Below, piece after piece: positions 12,001 to 15,000 of a stretch of 31,603 nt of DNA. Each line of letters opens with the position of its first letter. Position 1 is the first letter of the stretch. The DNA is from a virus (taxonomy: Duplodnaviria; Heunggongvirae; Uroviricota; Caudoviricetes): IMG/VR virus record IMGVR_UViG_2740892231_000003. One strand, written 5' to 3'. A program made the position numbers.

Positions 12001-15000
12001 TCAGATAAACTCATAACGCTGGTGAAGAGCCTCTGTGTACTTGTCGGCATTTCATTTTCACTAATGCTGGTTGCTCTTTTTCTTTCCATGGCCTGGATGG
12101 CGTTGACTTCGGCAGGGCTGGTGGGGTGAGCATAAACCGAATGCTTTCCGCGTTTACCGTTATTCTGCTGGTGGTCTGTGGTGCGCTTANNNNNNNNNNG
12201 TTGGCAGCAAGCGGGGTTTTGTGTTTCTGACCTTGGATAAGGCAAGGGAGAACATGGAAAAGTATAAACGAATTCTGTTGAGGTTGACTATGAAAAACGG
12301 CCTTGAACTGAAAGCGCCAGTAACTGATGACATCAGCAGAGCACTGGCTTTTGCTATTAAGTGGGTGGCGGTCGGTATATCGCTGTGTCTCCGATGCTGT
12401 ATGGGCTGGCAAAACTGGTCATTGCGTTGAAATCGTGAAGGGAGGATTAAACATGTCAGACAAACTCATAATGCTGGCGAAGATCCTCTGTGTAATCATC
12501 GGCATTTCATTTTCACTAATGCTGGTTGCTCTTTTTCTTTCCATGGGCTGGATGATGTTATCTTCGTCGGGGATGCTGGGGTGAGCATAAACCGAATGCT
12601 TTCCGCGTTTACCGTTATTCTGCTGGTGGTCTGTGGTGCGCTTAGTCTGGGGCTGAATCATTACCGCGATAACGCCATAACCTACAAAGCGCAGCGCGAT
12701 AAAAAAGTCAGTGAGCTGGAGCTGGCAAATGCAACCATTACTGATATGCAGCAGCGCCAGCGTGATGTTGCTGCACTTGATGCCAGATACTCGAGGGAAT
12801 TAGCCGATGCGAGAGCTGAAAATGAAACTCTGCGTGCTGATGTTGCCGCTGGTCGTAAGCGCCTGCGGATCAACGCCACCTGCCCCGGTACCGTGCGTGA
12901 AGCCACCGGCACCTCCGGCGTGGGCAATGATGCCGCCGTCGAACTCTCTCCGGTTGCTGGACGAAACGTTCTCGGTATCAGAGACGGAATCATCAGCGAC
13001 CAGGCAGCATTGAGAATGCTTCAGGAATATATCCGCACTCAGTGTATTAACTAGTATTTTTGTTATTCGGAGAATGCATGAAGAAATTACTGGTAACCGT
13101 AAAGCCTTTTCAGGGAACAATTCCGTTCCGTATTTTGCAGCGTGGTCGTGTTCTTGTTGAAGGTTCGTTCAGTGGTAAATGTACGCAATTACACTCCCGG
13201 ACCTTTCAGGTGAATGCCACGAATGAAGAGCTAACCGTTGAGTATACGATGAATGCCGCTAAATGCCGCATGGTATCCGCTGCATTACAGCCAGTGTGTT
13301 GAGCGACCTTATTATCCATGGCGCGGTATTGTCGCCGTATTCCCGTATTAACAGAGACCGCAGCCCGACAGGGAGACTCCTCTGCGCGAGTGTGCGGGGA
13401 TAATCAAAAACGATNNNNNNNNNNAATCAGAGAGGACCGGCGTAAGGCGGCGCGGGGAGAGTAAGCTGATGAGCAGGAAATTCCGCTATGGTTTATCAGC
13501 GGNNNNNNNNNNTCATGCGCGGTATTGTCGCCGTATTCCTGCATTAACAGAGACCGCAGCCCGACCGGGAGACTCCTCTGCGCGAGTGTGCGGGGATAAT
13601 CAAAAACGATACACACCGGGGTTTACCGCGTTAACGGAGCGCGGCGTTGTCCCCTCATGGTCGCTGGTCCGGTGCGATGGTGGAAGAAACCGGACGATGT
13701 GTTACCTCGCAAGCTCTGTTATGTCATGTGTCTGATTTGTGATTTAAGTCGGATAATTGTCGTTGCCATTAAGCAGAGGATTGATGGCCGACAGGGTGGC
13801 ATTGTTAGAATAAGACTTATTCTTATCTGTGCCGGGAATGAAAATGAAAATGAAAAGAAATCTTCCGTTAATTATTTTGTTGTCTTCTCTGGTTATGGGC
13901 TGTACGCAACNNNNNNNNNNACCGACAGGGTGGCATTGTTAGAATAAGACTTATTCTTATCTGTGCCGGGAATGAAAATGAAAAGAAATCTTCCGTTAAT
14001 TATTTTGTTGTCTTCTCTGGTTATGGGCTGTACGCAACATAAAACAGATATGCCCCGACAGTTGGTTAAGGCATTACCACAATATCCGGCCTATGCAGCG
14101 GCAAATTATATAAAGGGACGGGTTGATGTGAAGTTTGATATTGGTGCTGATGGTACTGTCACCCGAATTGAGTTTATCCGTTCAGAGCCGCACCATCTGT
14201 TTGATGAGCAGGTTGTAAAGGCGATGGCAAAATGGCGATTTGAGAAGGACAGGCCGCGTAAAGGCGTGAAGAAAACGTTTATCTTTAGTCCTTCTGCACC
14301 CTGATTATTTCATCAGAAATTAATTATCACTCTGTTGTTATTCTGTACATCCCGGCAGGGTAAGTCTTGTTCCGTCGGATATGAAGATGAAATATTGTTG
14401 GAGGACAGTGGGTAGCTGCTCCTGTAACCGAACGTTCATTTCTCGTTATTTGTCATGCTGGCCGGGCGCAGGTGCGTTGCATCTGTTGCCAGCCTTCTCC
14501 GGCAGGCTTCAATAACCCACGCTGAAAAGTTACCGGACCCTTTATGCTCAAGGGCGATGTTGATCTGTTCAATCATGTGATTGGGGAAACGGATATTGCG
14601 GGTTGTGGTTCTGCGGGTCCGGTTTTTCGATGACATATTTATTTCCTTTACTGATTGCCTTATGACGGGGATTTTACATGGCTGAGCTTCGTACACTCCA
14701 GAGCAGAATCAAAACACTGAATACCCGACGGGTGAATATTCTGAAGGGTGAACAGCGTCGTGTCAGTGGCAGTGCACGTGTTTCCCTCAAGCGTCATATC
14801 TGGCTCAGGGATGCCGGGCAGTGCTGTCTCTGTGGTCGTGTGGTTGACCTCTGTGACAGTGAACTCGATCACCGAATTGCACTTCAGTTCGGTGGTGGTA
14901 ATGAGGAGACGAATCTCTGGACGCTCTGTACCGAATGCCATCGACAAAAGTCTGCTCGTGAAGCGGCGGGTGGTATGCCGGACCCGACGCTGCCGGAGGT

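Follow-up and report, generated by a model that had tools for sequence, protein, structure and literature searches.

Group-B colicins, several microcins, many phages and siderophore-antibiotic conjugates enter the cell mainly through TonB-dependent receptors. The TonB box of one such receptor, FhuA, pairs in parallel with strand beta3 of the TonB domain by beta-augmentation, and FhuA and colicin M with mutated TonB boxes regain activity in the presence of the TonB allele Q160L (PMC11658791). In addition, TonB-dependent iron import was reported to be inhibited when the periplasmic TonB domain is overexpressed (Howard, Herrmann, Stratilo & Braun 2001, J Bacteriol 183:5885, as cited in PMC9841981), and the citing paper ascribes the converse to TonB-box peptides. 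In this work we analysed a 31,603-nucleotide (nt) stretch of Caudoviricetes DNA (IMG/VR record IMGVR_UViG_2740892231_000003; hereafter the window, at its full length), in which the plus-strand gene at positions 13978-14304 encodes a small lipoprotein with a TonB C-terminal domain, designated here the TonB_C lipoprotein.

This protein is homologous to the C-terminal domain of Escherichia coli TonB (residues ~150-239; structures 1U07, 1XX3, 2GSK and 2GRX), with which it shares the order of structural elements, the YP motif, the aromatic core and strand beta3. Unlike TonB, it ends just after beta3, without the equivalent of TonB residues 232-239, its lipid anchor is predicted at the opposite, outer membrane, and it has neither the N-terminal transmembrane helix nor the proline-rich spacer; it also carries Leu in place of Q160 and Tyr in place of R166, and cannot be energised. 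With the laboratory TonB fragments of Howard et al. (2001), it has in common a periplasmic C-terminal domain without energy coupling. Those fragments are soluble, engineered and overexpressed pieces of TonB, whereas the prophage protein is natural, diverged, predicted to be lipid-anchored and provided with its own promoter. They serve below as the mechanistic model for a possible role of the TonB_C lipoprotein as a TonB decoy.

Among phage proteins, Llp (T5) and Cor (phi80, HK022, N15, T1 and mEp167) are likewise small outer-membrane lipoproteins, known for superinfection exclusion, which inactivate FhuA from the periplasmic side and block phage entry. They share a fold of their own, unrelated to TonB_C, bind FhuA specifically and inactivate it allosterically, whereas the prophage protein would act generically via TonB boxes; unlike theirs, its gene occupies the slot after the lysis genes. 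The Pfam and PHROG matches of the TonB_C lipoprotein included no Cor or Llp family. Bor (lambda) and Iss resemble it in occupying the same slot between Rz and the packaging genes, and in being small outer-membrane lipoproteins expressed independently of the late operon, but they have no relationship to it in sequence or fold and are linked to serum resistance. A further parallel is provided by the Shiga toxin gene stx1, a prophage accessory gene under the host iron sensor, with a Fur box that matches the consensus at 16 of 19 positions; for the TonB_C lipoprotein, canonical boxes occur in homologues, and the palindrome preceding this copy of the gene matches at only 13 of 19. The protein is a member of the TonB_C family, but it is no TonB, spanin, Cor/Llp protein or PADLOC system.

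A prophage prolipoprotein with a TonB C-terminal domain

The gene lies on the contig spanning 13921-15574, where the ORF listing gives a mechanical open reading frame (ORF) of 113 amino acids (aa) from a GTG codon (13963-14304). Comparison of 72 related prophage copies, taken from IMG/VR and public records, revealed that the in-frame codon ATG 13972 reads ATA in 13 of them, whereas ATG 13978 is invariant. The latter is preceded, 6 nt upstream, by a weak Shine-Dalgarno sequence GGGA (13968-13971, plus strand), and the RefSeq protein WP_000828070 (108 aa, 'TonB family protein') begins at the equivalent codon. For these reasons, the coding sequence was taken as 13978-14304, with 108 codons plus stop.

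A truncated second copy of the gene (13790-13910, plus strand) is present on the preceding 398-bp contig, where it is ended by a sequence gap. It shows the same promoter, an identical copy of the palindrome (13807-13823) and the first ~20 codons from ATG 13850. The source genome therefore carries at least two copies of the gene; complete genomes carry one to four copies each. The number of in-frame ATGAAA units at the start differs between the two copies, with three on the truncated copy (13838-13855) and two on the complete one (13972-13983), and the three-unit form was found in two of the 72 other copies. This variation inserts or deletes Met-Lys and does not act as a frameshifting switch.

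The first 18 codons (13978-14031, plus strand) specify a lipoprotein signal peptide, MKRNLPLIILLSSLVMG, followed by Cys18 (codon 14029-14031). This N-terminus, MKRNLPLIILLSSLVMG/C, agrees with the PROSITE PS51257-type rule, which calls for a basic n-region and a hydrophobic h-region, with a lipobox [LIVM..][..][AGS]C no further than residue 35. Residue +2 after the cysteine is Thr, not Asp, which according to the sorting rule predicts outer-membrane sorting, and we infer from the sequence that the protein is lipidated and delivered to that membrane. Cys18 is invariant in an alignment of 13 family members, and every small homologue that was aligned, some with as little as about 33% identity, retains the lipobox cysteine. 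A tether of ~8 residues (TQHKTDMP) separates Cys18 from the domain.

Residues 26-104 (14053-14289, plus strand) form the TonB C-terminal domain and align without gaps with residues 153-231 of TonB, including the TonB crystallised with BtuB (2GSK) and with FhuA (2GRX); identity to enterobacterial TonB over this range is 37-41%. The domain scored 55.9 bits with Pfam TonB_C PF03544 (gathering cut-off 24.6, E=5.8e-15) and 56.4 bits with TIGR01352 tonB_Cterm (cut-off 27.1). The NCBIfam equivalog models of full-length TonB align by their last ~80 positions only, with 73 bits vs a cut-off of 315. The best sequence matches among solved structures were the TonB C-terminal domains of Salmonella and E. 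coli (E~1e-16; 1u07, 2gsk, 2grx). An AlphaFold2 (AF2) model based on a 22-sequence alignment reached a predicted local distance difference test (pLDDT) value above 96 across the domain, with low values only in the signal peptide and tether, and its helices (H) and strands (E), H38-42, E47-55, E61-70, H76-83 and E94-103, follow the order of the TonB C-terminal fold. Foldseek returned 1U07, 2GSK and 2GRX as top matches of this model, with target-normalised template modelling (TM) scores of 0.88-0.92 and root-mean-square deviations of 1.1-1.4 Å. No significant match to the model was obtained in the BFVD viral structure library, in which this fold is thus essentially unrepresented.

Within the domain, the YP motif is kept as Y36-P37, and TonB residues Y163, F180, F202, W213, Y215 and F230 correspond to Y36, F53, F75, W86, F88 and F103, so that all six aromatic positions are preserved. 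The edge strand beta3 (VKKTFIF, V97-F103) is kept as well. The equivalent of TonB Q160 is Leu33 and that of R166 is Tyr39, a Tyr being found at the latter position in most of the family too. In place of the inner-membrane signal-anchor helix that couples TonB to ExbB/ExbD, residues 1-18 of the prophage protein constitute a cleavable lipoprotein signal, and no proline-rich periplasm-spanning spacer is present. With neither transmembrane anchor nor proline-rich rod, the protein is capable of neither ExbB-ExbD coupling nor energy transduction. Altogether, the prophage gene encodes a prolipoprotein whose whole mature part consists of a lipid anchor, a short tether and a TonB C-terminal domain, which could plausibly bind what the TonB tip binds without being energised. 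A preliminary description of this locus had recognised both the lipobox LVMGC, which fits the PROSITE-type rule, and a TonB_C-like domain, which profile search and structure prediction confirm; the gene it pointed to is real, but the start it had assigned (ATG 13972, giving 110 aa) is wrong.

The gene belongs to a widespread family. Copies with at least 95% nucleotide identity (type A) were found in 417 of 5426 complete E. coli genomes (8%) in RefSeq, to which all copy counts refer, and every one of them is chromosomal. Type A was also present in seven phage records, namely four Stx1a-converting phages, JLK-2012 (two accessions) and Lys8385Vzw. A sister type B, with a protein ~71% identical to that of type A, occurs in 1225 of the 5426 genomes (23%), and its carriers include the classical lambdoid phage 21 and UTI89. 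Complete genomes with an intact gene number 414 for type A and 1221 for type B. The ratio of nonsynonymous to synonymous substitutions (dN/dS) between the two types was 0.12 at a saturated dS of ~1.5, which indicates purifying selection on the gene and not a decaying fragment. In databases, frameshifts near codons 85-95 affect many entries of the phage-21 type, which may represent pseudogenes or assembly errors.

Beyond types A and B, an exhaustive profile search yielded further small proteins (105-135 aa, 33-49% identity) with the same lipobox and TonB_C architecture, and a scan of one genome per species located such genes in Raoultella, Klebsiella, Erwinia, Serratia, Pseudescherichia and Pantoea. 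The gene itself has long been annotated: that of phage 21 appears as 'TonB C-terminal domain protein', and the ev017 record retains the former EDL933 label 'partial tonB-like membrane protein encoded within prophage CP-933N'. Full-text searches of the literature yielded no functional study, in agreement with the view in the preliminary description that the protein is uncharacterised.

The window is a draft scaffold with 16 gaps, each of exactly 10 N, and for this reason the gene neighbourhood was taken from complete genomes. In complete relatives, a holin, an endolysin and Rz/Rz1 are followed by an interval of ~0.6-1.4 kb and the TonB_C lipoprotein gene, and then by a convergent YlcI/YnfO gene, an HNH endonuclease and the two terminase subunits, the small one first. 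The gene of phage 21 and UTI89 lies after bor/iss and before another terminase type, and distant prophage homologues directly follow three more, non-homologous lysis cassettes (GH19 endolysin, phrog_7 lysozyme and Klebsiella phage type). In total, five lysis backgrounds were observed upstream and at least four terminase types downstream. The TonB_C lipoprotein gene is thus an intact, selected, stand-alone prophage 'moron' between the lysis cassette and the packaging genes, a classical moron position of lambdoid phages.

Promoter, palindrome and Fur boxes

A perfect 8-1-8 palindrome, AGAATAAG-A-CTTATTCT, is located at 13941-13957, where it was verified by exact match; it ends 14 nt before ATG 13972 and 20 nt before the real start at 13978. 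Its left arm is the -10 element of a promoter. A promoter scan on a complete-genome copy of the locus (L002) identified the extended -10 element TGtTAGAAT (13937-13945 of the window, plus strand), and the promoter of that complete copy reads ATGACC-16-TAGAAT with the TG extension, its weak -35 element falling partly inside the window gap at 13911-13920. Elements of the form TGnTA(G/C)TAT or TGtYAGAAT are conserved upstream of the E. coli, Klebsiella and Raoultella homologues, and of two prophage homologues (L086 and L094).

As a statistical feature, the palindrome is not exceptional. Five perfect inverted repeats (arms of at least 8 nt, spacer of at most 3 nt) are present in the window vs 1.7 ± 1.3 in shuffled sequences, whose maximum was 6, so that it is not rarer than chance in the shuffles; its meaning comes from the overlap with the -10 element. 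Type-A copies show hardly any variation in the palindrome, but the surrounding sequence varies just as little. Type B shares the motif attgtYagaataagac and the 190 nt upstream, and a 13-nt gap removes the right arm. An assignment as one of several operators of a phage repressor received no support, the 17-mer occurring only once (at most 3 mismatches) in the complete 57-kb phage JLK-2012. A role as terminator or RNA hairpin was discarded as well, with a core of -2.3 kcal/mol and without a U tract; furthermore, a terminator scan found no terminator-like site at or downstream of the gene.

The Fur consensus provides a further view of this region. Matches to it (GATAATGATAATCATTATC-like) at 14 or more of 19 positions were found within 100 nt upstream of the start in 16 of 22 family loci, which span prophages and the chromosomes of Klebsiella, Raoultella, Serratia, Erwinia and Pantoea; the probability that a random 105-nt window from these 22 loci reaches this level is ~0.014. 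In the Klebsiella/Raoultella genes and in the prophage genes L086 and L094, Fur boxes such as TGATAATTATTATCA and TTGATAATCATTATCAA directly follow the extended -10 element (TGnTAGTAT/TGnTACTAT), and boxes of the GAAAATCATTATC type precede the Serratia and Erwinia genes and those of another prophage group. Six stand-alone chromosomal genes of Raoultella, Klebsiella, Serratia and Erwinia (L101, L104, L106, L108, L112 and L113) have their start 6-45 nt after a canonical Fur box. The Fur box upstream of stx1A in the window, GAATATGATTATCATTTTC (503-527, consensus match 503-521, minus strand), was used as positive control of the scan; stx1 is repressed by Fur. The presence of Fur boxes upstream of most homologues, abutting the conserved promoter in the closest relatives, suggests that the family was ancestrally under Fur control and induced by iron starvation, together with TonB-dependent receptors.

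The closest homologues have their canonical Fur box at the very position of the type-A palindrome. Read on the minus strand, the latter (GATAAG-AATAAG-T-CTTATT) shows the three-hexamer layout of a Fur box, with the 13 of 19 consensus matches mentioned above. With a matrix built from the homologues' boxes and the stx1 box, it scored 7.9 bits, ranking 30 of 62,274 window positions, vs 14-29 bits for the boxes of the homologues. On both values the palindrome was rejected as a canonical Fur box in this copy, and type B gave no Fur-box score. In E. coli type A the operator would have diverged into the palindrome, which may bind Fur weakly or something else, and in type B it has presumably been lost.

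The preliminary description had placed the gene behind a perfect palindromic operator. The palindrome is indeed exact and overlaps a conserved extended -10 element, and by its position the term operator is plausible; on the other hand, its frequency by chance, the missing right arm in type B and the limited match to Fur leave the claim weakly supported. The description had missed both the association of the family with Fur boxes and its chromosomal, non-prophage members. A family associated with Fur boxes and common to chromosomes and prophages is, as read from the promoter regions, what is new here.

The chromosomal genes are flanked by ycgN-like and dsbB/nhaB genes in Serratia grimesii, and adjoin a LacI-type regulator in Raoultella and araA or panE-like genes in Erwinia. 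The neighbourhoods examined (L101, L108, L112 and L113) consist of unrelated housekeeping genes, with no receptor or transporter partner. These members look like a previously uncharacterised lipoprotein family of the Fur regulon of Enterobacterales. A DUF1440 (YagU-like) membrane protein gene was observed near the TonB_C lipoprotein gene twice, in the Klebsiella phage ST13-OXA48phi12.4 (L117, 1-403) and on the Raoultella chromosome (L101, 5738-6298); this recurrence may be due to chance, or to a prophage remnant at the Raoultella locus.

No known RNA family was detected at an E value of 1 or better in 1.4 kb around the gene. A non-coding element of ~190 nt was observed upstream of it, at 13318-13735 of the window (three partial copies on small contigs), at 4730-4910 of L002 and at 3150-3320 of L116. 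It is ~90% identical between the Stx-phage type and phage 21, which seems to exceed the conservation of the neighbouring coding region, with its 71% protein identity. The element had no Rfam match, and its folding energy showed no excess (z -0.35). A recombination joint, a small ORF (phage 21 has a 45-aa ORF annotated there) and a regulatory region are candidate explanations for it.

Possible roles of the tethered domain

Our preferred, still tentative, interpretation is that the TonB_C lipoprotein is an ancestrally iron-regulated, outer-membrane-tethered TonB decoy that competes with TonB; it sharpens the superinfection-exclusion role that the preliminary description had proposed as a hypothesis. 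Transcription would proceed from the gene's own extended -10 promoter, plus probable readthrough from the late operon during lytic growth. After cleavage of the signal peptide at Cys18, the short tether would keep the domain at the inner leaflet of the outer membrane, where TonB boxes are expected to emerge both from ligand-loaded receptors and from group-B colicins on their way in. The exposed beta3 edge strand of the domain could there pair with the boxes of receptors such as FepA, FhuA, Cir and BtuB or, as an alternative target, with the TonB boxes threaded into the periplasm by group-B colicins. Competition with TonB would lessen the TonB-dependent entry of colicins, of microcins and of phages, T1 and phi80 among them, while siderophore uptake would suffer to some extent, and Fur control would confer protection when iron starvation derepresses the receptors that these agents exploit. 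In this view the protein would be a natural counterpart of the laboratory TonB-fragment inhibitor and, with another fold, would do a job analogous to that of Cor and Llp. The decoy idea is strengthened by the conservation of the beta3 edge strand and the YP/aromatic core, by the reported inhibitory effect of an overexpressed periplasmic TonB domain, and by the Leu at the TonB Q160 position, which is the state of the Q160L suppressor allele. The wider proposal, that Enterobacteria and their temperate phages encode a natural family of outer-membrane-tethered, ancestrally Fur-controlled TonB decoys that capture TonB boxes and protect the cell during iron starvation, is possible but should be taken with more reserve than the reading of this one protein.

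Several points weigh against a decoy. Its main weakness is that Fur co-induction with the receptors fits an iron-uptake helper at least as naturally; moreover, a decoy would cut the iron supply of the cell at the very time of shortage. The chromosomal, non-prophage members of Serratia, Raoultella and Erwinia are hard to explain by phage exclusion alone, and the canonical Fur box is preserved in neither E. coli subfamily. In the FhuA-TonB structure, R166 of TonB forms a salt bridge with FhuA E56, and its replacement by Tyr means that receptor docking may differ from that of TonB. Finally, a search of the TonB_C lipoprotein and three relatives against the defence models of PADLOC-DB 2.0 gave no match at an E value of 0.1 or better.

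If the protein does act as a decoy, that function, a natural mimic of TonB, would be the new element, the gene itself being already annotated. It would represent the first natural inhibitor at the TonB-box step, present in ~30% of complete E. coli genomes (A and B carriers counted separately), including phage 21 and prophages of uropathogenic and Shiga toxin-producing strains, and would reveal a new logic of prophage exclusion, based on mimicry of the host energy-coupling domain and not on binding to a specific receptor. Such a decoy would affect colicin and microcin susceptibility as well as the host range of therapy phages, and could affect sensitivity to Trojan-horse antibiotics such as siderophore conjugates. 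The Fur-box association makes iron limitation a concrete condition under which to seek a phenotype.

The strongest alternative, although unlikely in our judgement, is a helper function, in which an accessory protein induced by iron starvation pre-engages or organises receptors with its outer-membrane-tethered domain, or pairs with the C-terminal domain of cellular TonB and so docks TonB at the outer membrane. Uptake would thereby be improved when receptors outnumber TonB, and the prophage copy would be a lysogenic-conversion fitness gene for iron-poor niches. This would account for the canonical Fur boxes upstream of most family members, stand-alone chromosomal genes included, for the strong purifying selection on the family, and for the presence in the same prophage of another moron with a Fur box, stx1. 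However, a domain without an inner-membrane anchor cannot deliver energy, no family member lies beside a receptor or transporter gene in the contexts examined, and the sole experimental precedent for free periplasmic TonB C-terminal domains (cited in PMC9841981) is one of inhibition. A helper of this type would be a missing accessory of the Ton system.

It is less probable again that the protein serves as a TonB trap or envelope tether, binding cellular TonB by heterodimerisation, peptidoglycan or periplasmic binding proteins, and so sequestering TonB at the outer membrane or altering the envelope as Bor/Iss do for serum resistance. The gene does share the moron slot of bor/iss, which it adjoins in phage 21 and UTI89; furthermore, crystals of short C-terminal fragments of TonB contain dimers, and there are reports of weak peptidoglycan binding. 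Against this, no LysM- or OmpA-like peptidoglycan-binding motif was detected in the protein, for which Pfam gives TonB_C only, and the dimeric crystal forms of TonB are reported to be absent in vivo (PMC3005593).

A lysis-associated function, as a spanin-like or spanin-modulating outer-membrane lipoprotein, was considered because of the best PHROG match, phrog_1267, which is labelled 'Rz-like spanin' (E=2e-42), and because of the location of the gene just 3' of the spanins in five lysis-cassette types. It appears highly improbable. A complete Rz/Rz1 pair already exists in every phage context, the chromosomal members have no lysis genes nearby, and a separate gene with its own promoter, with a Fur box in its homologues, and with a globular TonB_C product contrasts with o-spanins, which are short proline-rich outer-membrane lipoproteins encoded within or overlapping the i-spanin gene. 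Identity as a spanin was rejected on these grounds, with the genuine Rz/Rz1 lying upstream. PHROG 1267 in fact corresponds to the TonB_C lipoprotein family, and the moron slot after the lysis genes explains its label as an annotation by position, which is what it probably is.

Finally, the notion of a dead fragment, a functionless 3' piece captured from host tonB behind a chance palindrome, for which the old 'partial tonB-like' annotation, the ordinary frequency of the palindrome and several frameshifted type-B variants in databases could be cited, is effectively refuted by the low dN/dS at saturated dS, by a lipoprotein signal peptide added and kept across genera, by the conserved promoter and by the intact gene in most carriers of both types.

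Source scaffold and neighbouring genes

The gaps of the window are located at 5270, 7728, 9193, 10146, 12190, 13415, 13503, 13911, 15575, 16246, 28659, 28797, 29204, 30415, 31171 and 31517. The window is stitched together from many short contigs of multi-copy lambdoid prophages, the order across gaps being unreliable. An example of this multi-copy origin is found in the paired 177-aa ORFs at 10609-11142 and 15614-16147, the latter lysozyme-like. A second endolysin is positioned after the terminase fragment.

The genes around the TonB_C lipoprotein gene were assigned from ORFs and the annotation of complete relatives. On another contig, the i-spanin gene Rz (12581-13054, plus strand) contains the embedded o-spanin gene Rz1 (12807-13013). 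Downstream, the convergent YlcI/YnfO-family gene (14436-14696, minus strand) is followed by the HNH endonuclease gene (14678-15043, plus strand) and by the terminase small-subunit gene (plus strand), which starts at 15333 and is cut by the gap at 15575.

The window also carries a Shiga toxin 1 operon, with stx1A encoding ~315 aa from ATG 631 (631-1578, within the ORF 622-1578) and stx1B encoding 89 aa (1589-1858). The C-terminus of the A subunit and the leader of the B subunit differ from those of Stx1a, and the operon may represent a variant subtype.

The longest perfect palindrome in the window, of 18 bp (CAGTTAACATGTTAACTG, 15135-15152), lies between the HNH endonuclease and terminase small-subunit genes and might relate to packaging or to the HNH function.

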